From Octopus vulgaris (taxonomy: Eukaryota): a stretch of 64,000 nt of DNA. Within the stretch, counting starts at the first letter, position 1, and the number at the start of each line of letters is the position of its first letter. The stretch is from the NCBI GenBank assembly GCA_951406725.2, contig OX597816.1, positions 168,082,001 through 168,146,000 of the forward strand, given 5' to 3'. Made by a program: the position numbers and the translations under genes. The notes under the pieces were generated by a model. The model was not told the DNA's origin and did no database searches. It worked only from the letters and a program-made list of their open reading frames with translations. Shown in pieces: positions 661 to 48,130 of this stretch.

Positions 661-897
661 ATGCTATTTAAAAAATATTTTATGCATCTCACAATGTTGA
701 AATCCCATTTATATATCCCCTCACTCTTTATACAATGACAATTGCATTGACTTAATTCCTAAAGACTTGCTCTTTAGAGAACTGGCTGAGGATAAAATCC
801 CAAATATAAGGTTTTAGTAATCATTCAAAGTGATCTACAAATATAATCTTAAGTCATATGCTATTAATATCAAAATCTGAAAAACAATGGTCTAGAT

Positions 898-9905: not shown

Positions 9906-9989
9906 GATAAAACATATATCAAAAAAGAGGCACATGCTAAAGAATAGAGCAGTAATTGTTACAACAAAAATATTTTTATATCTTGGACA

Positions 9990-10052
9990 TAGAGTAACCC
10001 AAGATTTCATATCCAGAAAGCCAAAGCTTTGTGGACAGTTCATCAGATTCTA
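9990..10052 (-). ncRNA. Degenerate type I hammerhead ribozyme motif (Penelope-associated)
   Basis: Minus strand: TAGAAT CTGATGA ...TCCACAAAGC-tttg-GCTTTCTGGA.. GAAA TCTTGG GTT ACTCTA. Lies downstream of the minus-strand Penelope RT. Confidence 0.55.
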
Positions 10053-10371
10053 TATAAAGACACAAATTTTAATTTTCTATGTTGCAGACATGAGGAAAAG
10101 CTCAGAAATTGAGAAATAAAGTCTTCACATAAATGTTAATGAGGGCAGGTTGTCTACCCTGAACCAGAGGATAAAACATCCCTTATAAACCCGAAAAGGC
10201 TTAACGAGCAAATGAAGAGATTCAATTTTCCAGTAAGTAGCCCTTGAAGTGGACACATTTAGAAAATACTTGTTTCCGACAGATTTCATATAGTCCTTAA
10301 GAATTTTGGCTTTCTCCATGATGCATATTTTGCAATGGCCACTTACATTAATATATGGACGTAAAATAATA

Positions 10372-10800
10372 TATGCACATAAAAAGCACCATCCGAACGT
10401 GGCCGTAGCCAGTGCCGACTTGACTGGCTTCTGTGCCGGTGGCACATAAAAAGCACCATCCGAATGTGGCCGATGCCAGCGCCGCCCCGACTGGCTTCTG
10501 TGCCGGTGGCACATAAAAAGCACCATCCGAACGTTGCCAGCGCCGCCTTGGGTGGTTTCCGTGCCGCTGGCATGTTAAAAGCTCCAACCGATCGTGGCCG
10601 ATGCCAGACCCCCCCCCCCTGGCACCTGTGTAGGTGGCACGAAAAAAGCACCCACTACACTCGCGGAGTGGTTGGCATTAGGAAGGGCATCCAGCCATAG
10701 AAACTCTGCCAGATCAGACTGGAGCCTGGAGCAGCCCCCGGCTTCCCAGACCCCGGTTGAACCGTCCAACCCGTGCTAGCACGGAAAACGGACATTAAAA
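10372..10800 (+). mobile_element. RTE 3'UTR-derived repeat (family D)
   Basis: Repeated GTGCCGGTGGCAC-TAAAAAGCACC modules, then GGAAGGGCATCCAG...GCTAGCACGGAAAACGGAC. Confidence 0.85.
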
Positions 10801-11178
10801 AGGAACCCTCAGGGTCAGATTTCTTGACCTATGTTGAACCTTTGCTGAATAGCACTGTCTTCCTGGCATGCAAGATAACTCCAACATCACTATCACTAAT
10901 ATCTGTGAAGTGCCTTCAACAATAACTCTTTAGAAATTGATGGATAAAAGTTAACAATGTTGAATTGTGTAAATCTAGCTCTGCCTCTGTCTCGGTTAGC
11001 AATAAACCATGAAGTTACCTCATTGGTGCTGCACCATAGCAGGAGGCTCATGTGCCTTCTTATGCCATCATTAATCTTCTTCAGTATATACTTACTCGCC
11101 TGGCCAATCTTGGACTTGGCCTGCTTGATCAGGCAGCATTTGGGGGTTAGAGGCAAAATTCAGCTTGTGGTCTTTTAA

Positions 11179-11388
11179 CCCTTTCGTTACCAACCCAGCT
11201 CTGGCTCTGAGTACAAATGTCTTGTTTTCATAAGTTTTGAATACAAATCTTTTACCAAACCTTAATCACAATTTATGTTTCTAACACTTGTTTAATGATA
11301 ACTAAGTTATTTTACTAAACTCTTTGTTATATTTAAAGTAATTGAAAGAAACACAGAGCATCTCAACAGAAATACAGTAATGAAAGGG
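11179..11388. mobile_element. piggyBac-type MITE inserted in Penelope RT
   Basis: TTAA TSDs, TIR CCCTTTCGTTAC. It splits the FITL/KDHK codons. Confidence 0.9.
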
Positions 11389-14683: not shown

Positions 14684-15444
14684 TATATGTAAGAAAGAAA
14701 GAGATACACATATACACATATGCATATTCTCTCTGGTAGGGATGAATTCATGTTGCAAGATTCCTGGTTTGAAACCATATGTTGAAACAGATATTCTTAT
14801 ATTTCAGGGTCGTCATTTTTTTTTTTTTTTTTTGTACAAAAGAAACACATGCACTATATATTCGTTCTTCACTTGTTTATTACTGTTCTTATTCTAACTC
14901 ATGTCCATTGTCTGAAAATGGATTTCAGATAAAATAAGACAGGAATAAACAAGTGAAAAACGAGTATATAGTGCGAGTGTATATTTGGAAAAATAAAAAA
15001 ATGTCCATCTCAAAGTATAACAATACACACACACACACACAAACAGGACAACTGGTTGTTGAGATATTAGGGGTTTTCTGGGTATAGATACCCAAAACGA
15101 TGCATAATGGGAAAATACTCCAAAAATAACTTAACCCTGAAAGGGAAGAAACTCTAACCTTTCGATTAGACATGGTAACTTGACAATGAAAAAATGAGTT
15201 GTTTATACAGTAAATATTTCTATTTTCGTTCTTTAAAAAGGAGCACTGCATCCTTCAAAACTTCCATGCTTCCTGAGATTCGCCAACACTACACTTAATT
15301 TTCTCCCCTCCATACACACGCAAGCATGTATCTGACTCATATACTGTTCACTTCCCAGACATTTGTACATTACTGCATATACTTTATACGCACTTTTGAC
15401 AAGCTGTGGTGTACCTGAGCACTGTATACAATAATTTCATTATA

Positions 15445-18170: not shown

Positions 18171-20689
18171 ATCATCATCATCATCATCATCGTTTAACGT
18201 CCGCTTTCCGCGCTAGCACGGGTTGGACGGTTTGACCGGGTCTGGGATGCCAGGGGCCGCTCCAGGCTCCAGTCTGAATCTGGCAGAGTTTCTACGGCTG
18301 GATGCCCTTCCTAACGCCAACCACTCCGTGAGTGGATTGGGTGCTTTTTACGTGCCACCTGCACAGGGGCCGGAGGGTCCGGCATCGTCACGATCGGATT
18401 CGAGCATTTTAACGTGTCAGCGGCACGGGGGCAACGAGGTCCGGGGTACTTTGGGGATCGGGGTATTTTGGGGATCCAGGGTACTTTGGGGATCCGGGGT
18501 ACTTTGGGGATCCGGGGTACTTAGAATGGGTAGGGGGGTACTTAGAATGGGTAGGGGGTATGTGGAATTGCTGCAGAAAGCAGCCCGGGTCTTTGTAGTC
18601 ACAGCATATCTCCAGAGATCTCGGTCCTTCGCCATTGCCTCAGTGAGGCCCAATGCTCTGAGGTCATGCTTGACCACCTCATCCCATGTCTTCCTGGGTC
18701 TACCTCTCCCCCTGATACCTTCAACTGTTTGGGAGTGGCACTTCTTCACACATCTCTCTTCATCCATCCGCAGCACATGACCATACCATCGCAAGCGTCG
18801 CTCTTGCACACCACATCTGATGCTTCTTATATCCAGCATTTCTCTCAGGATACTTACACTCTGTTTTGCGTGCACACTGACACTACACATCCAGCGGATC
18901 ATGCTAGCTTCATTTCTTTCAAGTCTACGCATGTCTTCTGCAGTCACAGCCCATGTTTCATTACCGTGAAGCATGGCAGTTCGCACACATGCATCATATA
19001 ATCTACCTTTTGCTCTGAGGGAGAGGCCTTTTGTTGCCAGTAGGGGTAGGAGCTTTCTGAACTTTGCCCAGGCTATTCGTATTCTAGTGGTGATACTCTC
19101 TGTGCATCCACCTCCGCTACTAACTTGGTCTCCCAGGTAGCGGAAACTATCAACTACTTCTAGTTTCTCTCCCTGGAGTGTGATGGAATCTGTTTTCTGA
19201 GTGTCTGTTGTGTCTATTGTCCCTGTGCATCTGCCGCACATGAAAGCTATCTTATCTGTTAATTTCCCTTTAATGTTGCTGCACCTCTTATGTGTCCATA
19301 ACTTACATTGGGTGCATCTTATGGAGTTTCTATCTGTACCTTTCCTACAGGTTGAGCAGGGCCACCTACCCGAGGGGATGTGTGTTGAGTACCTCTTGCT
19401 GCTTACTAATACTTTGGTCTTTGCTACATTTATTCTAAGGCCCTTTGATTCCAACCCTTGCTTCCATACCCGAAATTTCTCTTCTAGTTCCGGTAGTGAT
19501 TCTGCTATGAGAGCTAGGTCATCGGCATAGAGGAGCTCCCAGGGGCATCCCGTTTTGAATTCCTCTGTTATTGCTTGAAGGACTATGATGAACAAAAGGG
19601 GACTGAGGGCTGAGCCCTGGTGCACACCTACTTCTACTCGGAATTCTTCACTATATTCGTTGCCAATCCTAACCTTGCTAACAGCCTCTCTGTATAGAGC
19701 CTGTACAGCCCTTATTAGCCATTCTTCAATCTCCAGTTTCCGCATCGACCACCAGATAAGGGAACGGGGAACCCTGTCAAAGGCTTTCTCCAAGTCTACA
19801 AAAGCTATGTAGAGGGGTTTATCTTTAGCTAGGTACTTCTCCTGCAGTTGTCGGACCAGGAATATAGCATCAGTGGTGCTTCTACCTGGTACAAAACCGA
19901 ACTGCATTTCATCTAAACAAATTCTCTCCCTAATGAGATTGGTTATGACCTTCTCTGAGACCTTCATCACCTGGTCCAACAGTTTGATACCTCTGTAGTT
20001 ATTTCTATCTAGAGCATCACCCTTACCCTTGTAGCAGTTGACTATGGTACTGCTGCACCAGTCATTGGGTATGGCTCCATTGTGAACTACCTGGTTTACA
20101 ATGCGGGTGACTATGGCATGGCCCACATAGCCAGCTGTTTTAAGCATCTCAGCAGTGATTCCTGATAGGCCAGGGGCTTTGCCTGGTTTCATATCCTTAA
20201 TTGCCTTATCTACAAGGGAGCTGTCTATTCGGGTAGCTGGTCCCTCTACTGGGTCAACATTTGGCACACGCCGTGGGCAGGAACTGGTGTTAGCAGTGGA
20301 CATTTGTTATCGTCACTGAGTAACGTAATTAGGTAGAGGAAAGAAATACAGATATTCTAGAGTTGAGTTGGGGAGGGGGGTCCAGTTGAGGCGGGTAATA
20401 TAGGGGAGCAACCAGTGGGGAAGGTTGGGGTAAGGAGGAACGATGGCAGGAAGGGTTGGTGTAGGTTCCTAAGAAATAAAAACGTAGGATATTACGAGGC
20501 GGGAGGGTACTAAAAGGGGATGGTCGGATTGAGGCAGTGTCAGGAGGAAGCGTAAGATCGGTGGGCAGTTGATGAGCTATGGCGCTAGCAGCTTGTCTTA
20601 AGCATATGAGGAGAAGGGTACTAAAAGGGGATGGTCGGATTGCCGAGGCGGGAGGGTACTAAAAGGGGATGGTCGGATTGAGGCAGTGT
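18171..20689 (-). mobile_element. RTE-clade LINE, TSD-flanked, lacking the APE endonuclease
   Basis: TSD CCTGTC at 18165-18170 and 20690-20695, (ATG)n tail, pyrimidine-rich 5' region and a single RT ORF. Confidence 0.9.
18417..20303 (-). CDS. RTE reverse transcriptase (628 aa) with internal PHD-like Cys/His finger
   Basis: KAPG, NYRGIKLL, QFGF.PGRSTTDAIF, FVDLEKAFDRV, GVHQGSALSP, YADD, FRYLG, RLRWYGHV and GRGRPRKTW all lie in one open frame. Confidence 0.95.
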   Translation of the reverse strand: MSTANTSSCPRRVPNVDPVEGPATRIDSSLVDKAIKDMKPGKAPGLSGITAEMLKTAGYVGHAIVTRIVNQVVHNGAIPNDWCSSTIVNCYKGKGDALDRNNYRGIKLLDQVMKVSEKVITNLIRERICLDEMQFGFVPGRSTTDAIFLVRQLQEKYLAKDKPLYIAFVDLEKAFDRVPRSLIWWSMRKLEIEEWLIRAVQALYREAVSKVRIGNEYSEEFRVEVGVHQGSALSPLLFIIVLQAITEEFKTGCPWELLYADDLALIAESLPELEEKFRVWKQGLESKGLRINVAKTKVLVSSKRYSTHIPSGRWPCSTCRKGTDRNSIRCTQCKLWTHKRCSNIKGKLTDKIAFMCGRCTGTIDTTDTQKTDSITLQGEKLEVVDSFRYLGDQVSSGGGCTESITTRIRIAWAKFRKLLPLLATKGLSLRAKGRLYDACVRTAMLHGNETWAVTAEDMRRLERNEASMIRWMCSVSVHAKQSVSILREMLDIRSIRCGVQERRLRWYGHVLRMDEERCVKKCHSQTVEGIRGRGRPRKTWDEVVKHDLRALGLTEAMAKDRDLWRYAVTTKTRAAFCSNSTYPLPILSTPLPILSTPDPQSTPDPQSTLDPQNTPIPKVPRTSLPPCR

Positions 20690-28014: not shown

Positions 28015-28199
28015 ATAGGAAAAGGAAAGATCCAGAGAAGGGAAGACGGAGGAAAACAAATCACCAACAGTACACACGCGGTCACATTATGAGTGTATTT
28101 TTGCTTTGTTAACAATTAACACGGAAAAAATAAATAAATAGTTACCAGGGTAGCAAAAAATCACACAAAATATTACGCTTAATTTATACAGTAACTCTT

Positions 28200-29620
28200 A
28201 CTTCCCATATTGACCAATCTTAAGTACATTAGCAAATTTAGTAATCATTCTAGGGCAATTACTAAGAACTTAGTTAAGAATATTTCATTTAGATTTTCTA
28301 AATTATCTGCTAATGTTGACATTTTCAATGATAACGCTAAATTTTATAACTCTGCCTTAATTAAAGCAGGTTATACAGAGAAAATTTTCTACATAGATTC
28401 TACTCAGTCTAATTCTAAATTCAATAATGTAGATATGAATTCTAGTTGTAAAAGAATTATTGATAACAAACATAACTTATGCACTGATACAAAGTGGATG
28501 AAGGGAGATAACCCTTATTTAATCCCCTATTATCATTCTAAAAGTAAATGTAACATTTTCATAAATAATTACGCTAAAAATACTAGTAAAAATATTTGGC
28601 TAATAGTTCTATATGGGAGACAAATTAAATCTAATCTCCCACTGCTATTTCGTCAAGCTATTGTTAGGAATTTTCCAAAGAATTCTAGGTATTACTCTAT
28701 TATCAATTCACATACAGCTAGGATTGGTTTTTTCCAACACAAAAAAATCTCTTACAAATTATCTCTTCACATAATAACAAACTGTTAAATATTAATACAT
28801 TTACTAATACTAACATTAATTTAGCTAATACCATCCACCACTCTAGAAATATTAATAACAAGGTTATTGTATCCGAAGTCAATTCCAACAGAATTAAGTT
28901 TATGTCAAGTAACTCTAAAATTAAAAATTCTATATACCAGTGTATAATCAATACTAGGAATAAAGTACGATTTTACATTGGGAGCACATCGTTAGAGTTA
29001 TCTAAAAGAATTTCTATTCATCACTCAATATTTAGGGATAGAAATAAACATAACAGTACTGGGCTCAGTAAATTAATTTCGGATCTAAAAGACCACAATG
29101 AACAATTTAATTTAGAATGGTTGATTCTCTCAATCTCAATACCTTATGACAAAGCCAAGGGATTCTATCTTCTCTGTAATTCTGAACTATTTTTCATTAT
29201 TTTTTCTAAAAATCCCCTAGTAAACACGGTTATAGAGCGTGCATATCGATGTAAACATTGGCAAAAACACACCTTTAGTGCATATAAGTAGTCTCTATCA
29301 TTATATATAATTTAAAGATTAATTTCCTTTATATTTAACATTCACTATTAATATCCCTACTCTTTCTTTAAGCTACTTCTGACGTTATATCATATAATGT
29401 TTTTTCAAACAATATTAACAGCGTTCAGTAAATCACTATACATATCCATCATTTTTTTGATAAAATGTCTTATTGACGAGTTTCATTTTTTCACTTCCAT
29501 GAAGAGAAGATTGCATTGTTTAATACCATTTATTCTTTTGAATAATATCAGTGAAATCTTTGAAATATGTGTCGAAAGTAAAAAGTATTTGATTTATACC
29601 TGCGTTAAACTCCATTTATA
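28200..29620 (+). mobile_element. Penelope-like element 3' part: RT thumb, GIY-YIG endonuclease and terminal region
   Basis: SNHSRAITKNLVKNIS.RFSKLS...YNSALIKAGY and SIYQC...FYIGST...KRISIH...STGLSK...W.IL...LCNSE...CKH. Confidence 0.9.
29493..29579 (+). ncRNA. Degenerate type I hammerhead motif at Penelope 3' end
   Basis: ACTTCC aTGAAGA GAAGATTGCATTG...CAGTGAAATCTTT GAAA T atgt GTC GAAAGT; C3 is mutated. Confidence 0.55.
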
Positions 29621-38422: not shown

Positions 38423-38535
38423 TATCTGAAGTCAATTCCAACAGAATTAAGTTTATGTCAAGTAACTCTAAAATAAAAGATTCTATATACCAGTGTATAA
38501 TCAGTACTCGTAATAAAGTACGATTTTACATTGGA
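38423..38535 (+). mobile_element. Short Penelope GIY-YIG fragment
   Basis: Nearly identical to 28870-28982. Confidence 0.8.
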
Positions 38536-38723
38536 GAACCATCAAATGCAAGTGCACCATCATTCATGCAGACATTTCTCTCCTATGACATCACAATTTT
38601 CTCTCACACACTGTCTTGCAATCTGAAATGCTTAAGTCTTAAGTCGTCACATTGCTGAACATAAGCAAATGTCTTCTTTTCTGCTTCTTCCCTGTCTAGA
38701 TATACATGTCTCCTAGCTTCCTT

Positions 38724-43344: not shown

Positions 43345-43411
43345 TTATTCACAACAAATATGTTTAATGTTATCAAACTAGAAATAAAATAATTCACACA
43401 AGTATACTTAC

Positions 43412-43488
43412 GGGCTGTTGAATCCTTTATAATCACCCTTTTCAAACGTCCTTTCAAAGAAGCATCTCTGTTGGATGTCTTGATTGAA
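43412..43488 (-). CDS. Slo2: Slo2/KCNT-like K+ channel, coding exon A (77 bp, phase 2 to 1), SIKTSNRDASLKGRLKRVIIKDSTA
   Basis: Acceptor ttataatttcAG and donor GTaagt. The peptide aligns by eye with the KCNT pre-S1 motif (ENTFKERLKLFFIKNQRSS, recalled) and joins the next exon in frame. Confidence 0.75.
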
Positions 43489-43769
43489 CTGAAATTATAA
43501 ATATATATTTTAAGAAATCAAATGAGTGAATAAATCTGATATTACTTACAGCTGTTATTGTTGTAGTTTCCAGAGGTTGTAATTCTGTAGGAAATAGAAA
43601 ACACAAAGTATATACTTGCTGTTGAAGTAATGGTTTTATTGCACCGGAATTAAGAACCAAGAATATTGGTTCCATAAGTATTTTCTTGAACATGTAATAA
43701 TAATGTTGGTGTTATGACTTTACAAATAATTTCCTTTGGATTGAGATGAGGTGAAATTTTTGAGTTGAA

Positions 43770-43965
43770 AAAAAAAATTGATGGTAAATTTTTTTTTAAA
43801 TCGTAGACTCATCATAGACGCATGCTAATACCCAGAAGGGCTCGATGTGAATCACAACTATAAGATACCCGGTTTTGGTTAAACTGCACCGCAAAATGTG
43901 GGAGTAGTTAGGAATCTAAATCGTAGGAGACAGACAGCACACAACCTCACTTTTATATATAAAGA
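43770..43965 (-). mobile_element. 5' part of the same Helitron family
   Basis: Near-identical to about 43150-43344 and retains the 5' TC end. Confidence 0.85.
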
Positions 43966-44179
43966 TTTTCTCCCTGATAACAAACTACAGGTTTTTTTCT
44001 GTAGTAGTTTACTTGAAGACACACGTGGATGGGCAGGGGAAGGTAAATGAACCTCATTCATATTTTGAATTCGGCGGTACTAACACTGAATATGATCTGT
44101 CTGATACCATGGAGAGATAAGTTCAATTATTCCAGTACCTTCGAATTTAATATTTCAATATTTAATTATTGCTGGAGTG

Positions 44180-44260
44180 CCATGCTGATGAGGAAAATGG
44201 TTGGTAAAGTATAATTCTATATTCTTTATTCCAATCTAATTCTGAAACGCGTGTACATGG
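44180..44260 (+). ncRNA. Type I hammerhead ribozyme motif with extended stem II
   Basis: CCATG CTGATGA GGAA..TTGG.TAAAG..CTTTA..CCAA..TTCT GAAAC gcgt GTA CATGG; all core nucleotides are intact. Confidence 0.8.
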
Positions 44261-44454
44261 GTGACCAGATATTGATTGATTTTCGTTACTTTTCCTCTCT
44301 GCCTGTGTGTATTGTTTTCAAGTATTTTGGTTTCTCTGGGAGTCCCTTTTAAAGTAGAAGAAATAGCTAAGGTTTTTGGCTGCTATTTCTAAACTTCGGT
44401 ATGTGGTAAAGCAAGTCTTTGCTGAACCCTAATTATTAAGTATATATATATATA

Positions 44455-44650
44455 TCATCATCATCATCATCATCATCATCGTTTAACGTCCGTTCTCCAT
44501 GCTAGCATGGGTTGGACGGTTCGACCGGGGATCTGGGAAGCAAGAAGGCTGCACCAGGCTCCAGTCTTATCTAGCAATGTTTCTACAGCTGGATGCCCTT
44601 CCTAACGCCAACCACTCCGTGAGTGTAGTGGGTGCTTTTTACATGCCACA
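44455..44650 (-). mobile_element. RTE 3'UTR-derived repeat (family D)
   Basis: (CAT)n plus family D terminus. Confidence 0.85.
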
Positions 44651-45333
44651 CACACACATATATATATATATTGAGAGAGAGAGAGAGAGAGAGAGAGCAT
44701 AATGTGAAACATATGGAGACTTGGGTTCATAACTTATATCCTATGAAAACTGACGTAGAAATTAGACTTTGTACAAAAGATAATGGGAAATATGATGTGG
44801 GTAAAAGTTTAGAATTCAGAAAGCCAACACAATATATGGAAAGAGAATTGCAAATAAGAGAACTTTCAATCTGGTACTCTATTTAGAGTAAAGTTGCTTT
44901 TGATAGCATTCCTGGTTATGTTACTAGATGTCTTGTATGAATTAATTAAAGGATATACTTCAGGCAGTTCAAAAAAAAATAATCACAGACAAGTAGGCAG
45001 ATCTTTCCTTTTAATTCATAAAAGTTAATTTCAGCTCTTTTCCAATGTTACTCGGTAGTAGCTCCCCTTAGCACTGATCAAAGCTTGCTGTTTATATTTC
45101 AGTTCTGTACCATACCTTCTATCAAGTTGCTTCTGGGCCACCAGGATCATGTGCAGGTAAGAGTATAGCAGTTAAGATGCTCTGGAGTCTTTCACGAAGA
45201 CAATTATTGTAACTCAAATGTACATCATTAAATAAAAACATATTATCCATTACAATTGCAGCGTGAAAGGTGTTTGTAAGCCATTTAAGAAACACACAAA
45301 AGCCGTTCGATTCACTTCAACATTTAAGTTTAA

Positions 45334-45383
45334 TTTGTCAAAATATTTTCGTCGCTAAAATCCGCGACCTGTTCACTGACAAA
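45334..45383 (-). ncRNA. Minimal type I hammerhead variant with G3-C8 core
   Basis: Minus strand: TTTGTCA GTGAACA G GTCGC-ggatttta-GCGAC GAAA ATAT TT TGACAAA. Confidence 0.7.
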
Positions 45384-47034
45384 AATCCGTGCTGCATCTT
45401 GATCTCAGATCAAATCACTTGCTATGCGAGTACATCTCCATATTATCCATTACTACCTATAAAGTGGCCAATCTTTCTAGCAGTAGTGATAAACTACACC
45501 AGCTTCCTATGCATCACCAACTTCTGATAAGTTTTCTCCTGAATCTCATATAATATCAATTGTTTTCTAGTGAAATTAATTATGTCACCAATGAAATGAG
45601 CACATATGCTGTCATCTGGTGCTCAGTTTAGGCAAGCATTTCATTAATTTACATGCAAAATGAAAGAAGCATCAGAAGTCAAAAATATTTTGAGAGGTGG
45701 GTATGGACTGATTTCTTTCGATGTGCCATGCTCTACCATTGGTAAGTTCAAAGTAAACATTTTTTCTAAGAATTTTGTATTTCTTCTTTGATAGTTTCTT
45801 ACTTTTGAAAATATTACAATATAAATGGCGGTGCCCCAGCATGGCCACAGCTCTTGAGCTGAAACTAGATAAAATAAAAATAAATAATAATTAAAATATT
45901 TAATCATTTCTGTGCTCATTAATCTTTGTTCTGTGCGGCTTCATAAGTATTAATTAATATAAGGTGGAGACACATGGCTTAACGGTTAGGGTGTTATGCT
46001 CATGATTGCAAGATTGTGATTTTGATTCCAGGACTGAATGATGCATTGGGTTTTTGAGCTAAACACTTCATTTCATATTACTCAGTTCCACTCAGCTGAC
46101 AAGAATAAATAATCCTGTGATAGACAGGCATCCTATTAGTGGGTAGGGGATATATATGCCACAGAACCTGGGAAACTGGCCTTATGAGCCTATGACTCAG
46201 AAAGGACCTTTGATACTTATTTTTTTCTCTGTATTGATATAAGGGAGCTGAATTGAATTTAAATGAAGAAGTACAAGTGTTAGTTAATTAAATGACAATA
46301 TAGAGAATTAAAACAGATATGTAAGTAAAATTACTGAAAGGTAATTTGTTATGAATGCTTAACTGAAATTTTGATTTGAATAATACATAGAATGACATAC
46401 ATCATATTTCAGGATAGACTGTAAGTAGCAAAGTGCAAACAATTTTTACTTCATATTTGTTGGTCTTGTAGCTCACTTGGTAATGATAAACATGATTGTA
46501 TAATTTGGTGAATAACGTACTTGAAGATAAATCATCAATACACTTGTAGATGAGTAACTATTTTCCGCTGAGAAGTTTACTGCACAGGTAGATAGCTTTA
46601 TTATAACACTTCTCTTCATAATAGTCCTTGAACCCATTCCAAAGTAAATCTGGACTGAAAAAGAATTTCTCTCTCAGGAATCCTAAGATAATTATTGTGA
46701 GAATGAGTTCAACTTAAGCATTCTTAATGTAGGTAGCCTTAATGTGACCCATTCAAATGCTCAACAATAAAATGAAGCAGTAGAATAGTAATGTTAGTAC
46801 ACAAGGAAATGGTTGATATTGTGTAGAGAGAGAGAGCAATCAATAGGTGACATCAGTTAGTCATGCAGACTATAGGAAGTGTATAATGGAGGAGGGGGAG
46901 GATGAAGAACGTTTTCTAAAATGTTTATGAAGTCCATAGTTGACGCAGATGTGGTATAGTTAGATATTAGATTATAAAGAATGCAATAGCAAATTGACTA
47001 GGATGAAATCCACTTTGTTAACAACAGAAAGGAC

Positions 47035-48130
47035 ATCATCATCATCGTTTAACGTCCGCTTTTCATGCTAGCATGGGTTGGATGGTTTGACTGTGGGCTG
47101 GCGAACCAGATGGCTGCACCAAGCTCCAGTCTTGATCTGGCAGAGTTTCTACGTCTGGATGCCCTTCCTAATGCCAACCACTCCGAGAGCGTATTGGGTG
47201 CTTTTACGTACCACTGGCACGGGGGCCAGTCAGGCAGTACTGGTGACAACCTCGCTTGAATTTTTTTGGCCAGACAGGTGGTACTGGCAACGACCTCACT
47301 CGAATTTTTACATATGGGCCAGTTAGGCAGTACTGGTGACAACCTCGCTTGAATTTTTTTGGCCAGACAGGTGGTACTGGCAACGACCTCACTTGAATTT
47401 TTACATATGGGCCAGTCAGGCAGTACTGGTGACAACCTCGCTTGAATTTTTTGGCCAGACAGGTGGTACTGGCAACGACCTCACTCGAATTTTTACATAT
47501 GGGCCAGTCAGGCAGTACTGGTGACAACCTCGCTTGAATTTTTTTGGCCAGTCAGGCGGTACTGGCAACGACCTCACTCGAATTTTTACATATGGGCCAG
47601 TCAGGCAGTACTGGTGACAACCTCGCTTGAATTTTTTTGGCCAGACAGGTGGTACTGGCAACGACCTCACTCGAATTTTTACATATGGGCCAGTCAGGCA
47701 GTACTGGTGACAACCTCGCTTGAATTTTTTTGGCCAGACAGGTGGTACTGGCAACGACCTCACTCGAATTTTTACATATGGGCCAGTCAGGCAGTACTGG
47801 TGACAACCTCGCTGGTGACAACCTCGTTGAATTTTTTTGGCCAGACAGGTGGTACTGGCAACGACCTCACTCGAATTTTTACATATGGGCCAGTCAGGCA
47901 GTACTGGTGACAACCTCGCTTGAATTTTTTTGGCCAGACAGGTGGTACTGGCAACGACCTCACTCGAATTTTTTACACATGCCAACGGCACAGGTGCCGG
48001 TAAGGCTATGCTGGTAACAATCCTGCTCGAATGGTGCCTCCTACATGCCACCAGCACGGGAGCCAGTTAGCCGCTCTGGCAACGATCACGCTCAGATGGT
48101 GCTCTTAGCACCCTACTAGCACGGGGCACA
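47035..48130 (-). mobile_element. RTE 3'UTR-derived repeat (family D) containing a 93-bp minisatellite
   Basis: (CAT)n at 47035 and family D body on both sides of the array. Confidence 0.85.
47223..47978. repeat. Tandem array, 8 copies of an about 93-bp dimeric unit
   Basis: Units start at about 47223, 47316, 47409, 47501, 47594, 47687, 47780 and 47887. Confidence 0.92.

Follow-up and report, generated by a model that had tools for sequence, protein, structure and literature searches.

A G3-C8 hammerhead core is a family trait of a young Penelope-like element in Octopus vulgaris

In Octopus vulgaris, we identified a large family of hammerhead motifs in which core positions 3 and 8 form a G-C pair, whereas natural hammerheads almost invariably have C3-G8. 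The motif was found in a window of 64,000 nucleotides (the whole stretch of DNA analysed here, positions 168,082,001 to 168,146,000 of contig OX597816.1), and the swap is a trait of the family, not a quirk of the window copy. The motif belongs to a 206-nt unit that is the 3′ end and pseudo-LTR (pLTR) of a young autonomous Penelope-like element (PLE) with an RT + GIY-YIG ORF. As to its function, we favour as the probable reading a slow, protein- or dimer-assisted self-cleaving ribozyme that acts in the element's own RNA and not in the host intron where the window copy resides.

The motif is a type I minimal hammerhead, composed as follows:

45334-45383, minus strand: whole hammerhead motif, with G3-C8 core and U17 (sequence reading, RNAfold, strict descriptor)
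45383-45377 / 45340-45334, minus strand: stem I, 7 bp
45370-45376, minus strand: core positions 3-9, GUGAACA, with G3 at 45376 and C8 at 45371
45369, minus strand: extra G between A9 and stem II
45368-45364 / 45355-45351, minus strand: stem II, 5 bp, with a loop of 8 nt
45350-45347, minus strand: GAAA
45341/45340, minus strand: predicted cleavage site after U17 (45341), unit positions 59/60, placed by hammerhead numbering

All the elements of the hammerhead named in the first-pass annotation were thus recovered on the minus strand by reading of the sequence, RNAfold and the descriptor. The three-way junction with stems I and II comes with U4 G5 A6, A9, G12 A13 A14 A15.1, U16.1 and H17, and a palindromic AU mini stem III region lies on the minus strand between GAAA and U17. 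Positions 3 and 8 form a Watson-Crick pair, G-C in this copy, and the canonical C3 + G8 identity is absent. The minimum free energy structure returned by RNAfold contains both stems (z -3.4; 1 of 200 shuffles was equally good), and a strict descriptor that allows either C3-G8 or G3-C8 gave one match in the window and none in 150 Markov-resampled windows. The hallmarks described for minimal PLE hammerheads (PMC4209133) are also present, namely the extra nucleotide at 9/10.1, G10.1-C11.1 and a palindromic 15.2-16.2 region; the intermolecular stem III duplex is predicted to be weak (-2.0 kcal/mol). As the annotation had anticipated for a standard hammerhead search, the Rfam hammerhead models gave no match to the motif at E up to 10. 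With a G3-C8 family of about 8,000 motifs, CUGANGA-type descriptors and Rfam therefore miss a whole class.

In the window, the motif sits in a short insertion (45254-45438) flanked by perfect 15-bp direct repeats and made of two head-to-head pieces of the 206-nt unit:

45239-45253, plus strand: left target-site duplication, 15 bp, 100% identical to 45439-45453
45439-45453, plus strand: right target-site duplication, 15 bp, 100% identical to 45239-45253
45254-45399, minus strand: arm 1, pLTR unit positions 1-146, running from 45399, the fixed 5′ end, up to the first of the 3′ ends (alignment to the 206-nt unit)
45401-45439, plus strand: arm 2, an inverted PLE tail piece, unit positions 165-203, without hammerhead, head-to-head with arm 1 (unit alignment, opposite strand)
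45255-45284, minus strand: first 10 codons of the element ORF, with the ATG at 45284; the same ATG opens a 129-codon frame into the element body at locus L384
43412-43488, minus strand: host exon with AG/GT ends (contig pieces 43410-43491, splice signals)

These borders replace the compact unit of about 140 bp (TGCAGC...GCTGCA) first proposed, whose 6-bp inverted hexamers are not borders. The interval 43410-43491 is covered by contig pieces from two studies (X1 and X4) that continue elsewhere at both sides; the RNA status of these runs is the tool's guess, and contigs cannot show RNA ends or circles. Unique DNA from 43491 to 45700 had no cover in three RNA-like runs. From the exon-piece contigs, the splice signals and the uncovered flanking DNA, we conclude that the insertion is intronic, upstream of the exon, and sense to a minus-strand host transcript, which agrees with the initial placement of the motif in host pre-mRNA sense. 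A Pfam search with two frames of the 77-nt exon was blank. Two candidate exons, 45026-45154 and 45459-45539, were not supported: the frames read contain stops, and the three RNA-like runs leave both intervals uncovered.

A motif that is intact, that lies in sense orientation in an intron and whose two insertion junctions are both present in DNA run X15 might have been recruited by the host for cutting or regulating its own pre-mRNA. We regard this as highly improbable. The copy differs from the subfamily majority at only 2/145 positions, so the motif is intact because the copy is young; there is no partner motif in cis, and about half of intronic insertions are sense by chance. Selection on the window copy, which had been suggested from the exact swap and the perfect stems, is not supported either. 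Indeed, genomic copies lose G3 or C8 at 3-6%, which is close to what is seen at position 7, a free position (changed in 3 of the first 100 G3-C8 matches), and argues against constraint on individual copies. The window copy is most likely a passenger in the host intron and, as a single motif without a cis partner, likely inert.

The window holds further mobile sequences. Decayed pieces of a 778-codon PLE family lie at 28170-29290 and 38425-38544 (both plus strand), and an older PLE family remnant at about 9980-11180 (minus strand) has its own canonical-core hammerhead-like motif that starts at 10046 on the minus strand. Head-to-head pLTR pieces of a sister (S-type) family are found at 14742-15025, a LINE-type RT frame of 629 codons at 18420-20306 (minus strand; Pfam RVT_1, E 5e-30) and a tandem array (93 bp, 8 copies, 94% matches) at 47223-47981.

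Genome-wide, the swap is the rule in this family. The 25-mer downstream of the motif has 4,315 exact matches in the 2.8-Gb genome and, with the flanking family context held fixed, 7,341 of 8,041 motifs are G3-C8. The others combine G3 with another base at position 8 (443) or another base at position 3 with C8 (227), or have both positions changed (30, several of which are junction artefacts or unrelated sequence); control searches for the four states gave 0, 0, 0 and 1. When the core was read without selecting on it, G3-C8 was found in 61/63 and 13/13 young copies. The expectation that the swap is fixed across the family is thereby confirmed. Two loci with C3-G8 within the family (L081 and L082) were considered as ancestral relics and rejected: about 0.6 such loci are expected from the single-change rates (hand counts), and the partner arm at L081 is G3-C8. 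Of the first 100 position-8 single changes, about 30 give G, which is high for a transversion; this excess could come from mutation context, conversion or minor templates.

The unit derives from an autonomous element, in line with the Penelope-terminal origin put forward at first. Some arms extend upstream by 23 nt (409 exact matches), and pieces of an ORF were found in 10/12 fetched loci with paired extensions. At locus L384, a pLTR-ORF-pLTR tandem with a period of 4,261 bp carries the hammerhead in its pLTRs; a second locus, L426, has an open frame of 1,025 codons. Motifs read at both loci identify an RT and, at the C-terminus, a GIY-YIG, and the linker upstream of GIY-YIG (CX3CX2C) matches the CX2-5CxxC mark of Neptune/Nematis. 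No fully intact full-length ORF of the family was seen, L384 having a stop and frameshifts and L426 lacking the N-terminus. A frame of 755 aa matched no Pfam family; in the atlas, the element protein has neighbours at 0.96-0.98 with RVT_1, HTH_animal or GIY-YIG. Over 150 RT residues, 12 places show 100% identity, which points to recent activity. The pLTR cores at ORF-bearing loci read GTGAACA in 26/28 cases; with the pLTRs of ORF-bearing copies, the window copy shares 95-98.6% identity. The start of the ORF falls within the unit (window 45284), some 56 nt downstream from the predicted cut site, so that the tail consists of the first codons, as in the anole element. Other PLE hallmarks are two 3′ ends (the tail being optional), inverted 5′-truncated partners and AT-rich targets. 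About 45 family RT copies stand among the matches listed, for about 8,000 motifs.

Several other relationships were considered. A separate non-autonomous SINE family was replaced as an explanation once the ORF-bearing tandem had been found. Two young PLE families of 778 aa and 717 aa were rejected as mobilising partners, their termini having no significant similarity to the unit. At L202, a sister hammerhead is found upstream of a PLE ORF that is decayed; this was rejected as proof of a partnership, as that ORF has its own 3′ hammerhead, and sister pieces occur in 4/30 PLE-selected loci versus 6/60 background loci; the sister hammerheads were linked to PLE ORFs later, through protein homology. 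At three loci (L027 about 1700-2000, also L045 and L046), which are duplicated, a full-length unit stands just before an intronless coding stretch that by eye is dCMP-deaminase-like.

The ends of the copies inform on how they were made. We mapped 98 arms, picked by the downstream 25-mer from the first 100 listed matches, all on C1. At the 5′ side, 56/98 arms begin at unit positions 1-4 and none (0/98) at positions 58-61, where the predicted cut falls; at the 3′ side, 36/98 end at 143-151 and 55/98 at 204-209, which gives two 3′ ends about 58 nt apart. Head-to-head inversions occur in 27/57 loci, nearly all with one arm ending at each 3′ site. A (TA)n tract adjoins 42/57 loci, and duplications of 9-14 bp were found at 11 non-TA sites. 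In these 57 loci the short copies are single or inverted arms, one locus having a partial same-strand repeat without a second motif. The short copies support, at the genomic level, internal RT initiation in the 5′ pLTR as the source of SINE-like inserts; they may also propagate themselves.

This pattern also bears on the suggestion, made in the first-pass annotation, that the unit could be retrozyme-like or circular. A short, high-copy unit with a type I hammerhead is what a non-autonomous retrozyme spreading through hammerhead-cut circular RNA would look like, and an origin of retrozymes from PLE pLTRs has been proposed (bioRxiv 10.64898/2026.07.22.740005). As none of the 98 arms starts at the cleavage site, this idea fails; moreover, the short copies are single or head-to-head, tandem short units each with a hammerhead were not seen at the 57 loci, and the unit is nearly identical to the pLTR of an ORF-bearing element. 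We consider a retrozyme extremely improbable.

Comparison with related families shows that the swap is a true compensatory change, as had been claimed. An older family (39 matches; 78-82% identical downstream, hence about 20% diverged) has the same 5′ end, tail and inversions, and its core, read without selecting on it, is G3-C8 in 16/23 copies and C3-G8 in 0/23. Its motif has N7 = C, another loop II and G-C in place of U-A at stem I pair 6; the region of stem III is shorter by 2 nt and still palindromic. Thus loop II and N7 vary freely between the two G3-C8 families and the stem III palindrome survives a 2-nt change in length, whereas the other core positions, G10.1-C11.1, U16.1 and H17 are kept. 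Homologous sister families of the same genome (52-63% identical downstream) are C3-G8: this state was found in 25/27 fetched copies of sister S1, whose stem I is imperfect, and in 79 of the first 100 of 147 sister matches (hand count). A sister autonomous element of 1,312 codons, 54% identical in RT/EN over about 810 residues, also has a C3-G8 hammerhead in the pLTR upstream of its ORF start, found through an N-terminal protein search. C3-G8 being the rule elsewhere, parsimony makes G3-C8 the derived state. One further locus, L191, combines a decayed PLE ORF with a U3-A8 hammerhead that follows it downstream and has a tail of the sister type (about 830-880, minus strand).

We also looked for covariation in an alignment of 24 distinct rows drawn from young copies and sister copies; it omits the old family as well as sister S1, whose stem I is imperfect. 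In this alignment 95.5% of cells pair, and the 3-8 states are CG 13, GC 8, UG 2 and other 1. Two-sided changes are seen at 3-8, at 10.4-11.4 (GC 11 / AU 10) and at 15.2-16.2 (AU 9 / GC 8); stem I pair 6 also changes on both sides between families, from U-A to G-C. Three such pairs are not above shuffles (194/500), each representing about one event. The G3-C8 state is one evolutionary event.

A single event, genomic copies that decay freely and the imperfect stem I of sister S1 could all be expected if the swap were two neutral accidents in a decayed ribozyme, carried along by a successful master element. We judge this very unlikely, because the changes are exactly complementary at the one tertiary pair and because two families retained the swap even as changes came to N7, loop II, pair 6 of stem I and the length of stem III. 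The cleavage-site nucleotide may have helped. U17 is present in both G3-C8 families and, among the copies examined, C17 only in C3-G8 copies; G3-C8 was reported, with data not shown, to be less active beside C17 than beside G17 (PMC3884650). From this remark and this distribution, U17 may be permissive for the swap.

The cores of other young PLEs in this genome depart from the canonical one elsewhere. In the active 1,312-codon sister, A9 is changed to C in 96 of the first 100 of 3,251 matches (hand count; for instance L429 5883-5935, and L428) and kept in 3 of those 100 and in the older locus L432; the A9C change is likely damaging. In two further families with intact RT+GIY-YIG frames, at L195 (717 codons, 2.59-kb tandem) and at L159/L162 (778 codons), a hammerhead-like motif has a C4 core, CCGAAGA, in 24/25 and 24/34 matches at fetched loci; its pairing was read by eye, and RNAfold did not return a hammerhead fold. 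The A9C core of an active sister and C4 in two families suggest that cores drift and that a high copy number needs no canonical ribozyme.

We can propose the following course of events for the self-cleaving reading. Transcription would start at unit position 1, and the RT would use internal start points near position 147 or 207; in vitro, the anole PLE has been shown to initiate in this way, its tail being defined by two internal RT start sites (PMC11167929). Starts in the 5′ pLTR would account for the inserts of 150-207 nt, which number in the thousands, and head-to-head pairs such as the window copy would arise when both target strands prime. With G3-C8, the catalytic tertiary pair would be retained at a lower cleavage rate. 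The cut could detach a 59-nt leader, likely capped, from the ORF, or it could serve late in the cycle to trim tandem transcripts; at the 3′ pLTR, it would part the RT start from the ORF. Since none of the 98 arms starts at the cleavage site, uncut RNA would be the template, which would make fast cleavage costly. As a cut would remove the leader or the RT start from the ORF, a slow, gated ribozyme would be tolerable.

Published experiments are consistent with such an attenuated ribozyme. In the anole PLE, single C3G or G8C changes kill cleavage and the double C3G/G8C partly restores it; cleavage needs protein, and the insertion substrate is uncut RNA (PMC11167929). Elsewhere, G8C was reported to cost 10^5-fold, with partial rescue by C3G (PMC8495972), and minimal PLE hammerheads to cleave weakly, as dimers (PMC4209133).

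The start site deserves a comment. Long copies have a (TA)n tract some 30 nt upstream of position 1, a distance that would suit a TATA-initiator layout. An extra G precedes 10/18 unextended full-length arms, and an A is found there in 19/26 arms chosen for their likeness to the window copy; a cap-like extra G before position 1 is weakly supported. The 23 nt before unit position 1 (L384 4490-4520) resemble the TATA-to-initiator spacer after (TA)n and also a 3′ splice site with a branch point; in the old family, the region upstream of position 1 has a different sequence and a similar length. Use of this region as a 3′ splice site was not supported, as 0/18 unextended full-length arms have element-body sequence upstream.

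The main alternative is that the motif has no useful cleavage, its fold being kept as a protein-binding site or through overlap with an internal promoter, so that G3-C8 would preserve only shape or promoter DNA. Downstream promoter elements sit 24-30 nt after the transcript start, and the core lies 24-30 nt after a fixed 5′ end that is common to both G3-C8 families. Templates are uncut, one sister family is highly active with A9C and two more families have C4; besides, hammerhead mutants of the anole PLE do not impair insertion in vitro (PMC11167929). On the other hand, the rest of the core is kept between the two families about 20% apart, together with G10.1-C11.1, U16.1, H17 and the palindrome of stem III. 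In the full-length hammerhead structure, the 3-8 pair is formed in the active conformation. By our estimate, two random core changes would hit 3-8 in a complementary manner about once in 165 (1/55 x 1/3). We therefore hold a non-cleaving role to be unlikely, though a serious contender, and retain the slow self-cleaving ribozyme as the preferred reading.

In the searchable literature, we found only engineered G3-C8 when looking for a natural G3-C8 or an octopus hammerhead, and the survey of PLE hammerheads by Lunse et al. 2017 may already include the variant. Among the motifs examined from the 56-motif alignment of PMC4209133, none is G3-C8, and the motif had no match in the Craig 2021 supplement. 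It is tempting to go further and to see here the first natural catalytically active G3-C8 hammerhead, with cleavage tuned down, all four young PLE families core-dampened (G3-C8, C9, C4, C4) and slow cleavage selected because the uncut RNA is the template; we offer this fuller version tentatively, as a possibility that may well be wrong. The role of the hammerhead in PLEs has been described as unclear (PMC8557442). The sister autonomous families of one genome, with G3-C8, C3-G8 and A9C, form a natural series for distinguishing cleavage that is tuned, dispensable or protein-gated.

The octopus motif is closest to the minimal type I hammerheads of metazoan PLEs (Cervera and de la Pena 2014, PMC4209133), with which it shares the pLTR location, the extra 9/10.1 nucleotide, G10.1-C11.1, a palindromic or absent stem III, a frequent U17 and a predicted dependence on dimers. 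It differs by its core, the 56 representatives of that set having C3 or U3 cores, with a natural covariant U3-A8, and by its extra nucleotide, which is G here and H in the published consensus; that set includes no cephalopod. Natural 3-8 covariation is also known from U3-A8 hammerheads (Perreault et al. 2011, PMC3088659), where the pair is U-A instead of G-C. Non-LTR retrozymes are likewise short non-coding units with type I hammerheads and a link to PLE pLTRs; however, they have tandem units with ends set by the hammerhead, neither of which was found for the octopus short unit at 57 loci and 98 arms.

At the level of the element, the Neptune and Nematis EN+ PLEs (Craig et al. 2021, PMC8557442) have in common with the octopus family a C-terminal GIY-YIG, the CX3CX2C linker, CCHH-type residues, (TA)n targets, inverted 5′-truncated partner copies and a tail at one end, a likeness drawn from the linker and these features. 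Unlike in Neptune/Nematis, the octopus family has roughly a hundred times more short pLTR-type copies than RT-bearing ones. Finally, the PAc Poseidon element of Anolis carolinensis (Frangieh et al. 2024, PMC11167929) shows the same hammerhead near the ORF start, AT-rich targets and uncut template, as well as two internal RT start sites and a tail within the first codons. Its ORF starts in stem II, whereas that of the octopus element starts about 56 nt after the cut site, and the octopus element is further set apart by a tail of about 58 nt and a protein with the CX2-5CxxC linker. The PAc hammerhead is C3-G8 and its G3-C8 form is an engineered rescue, while in the octopus G3-C8 is the natural state.
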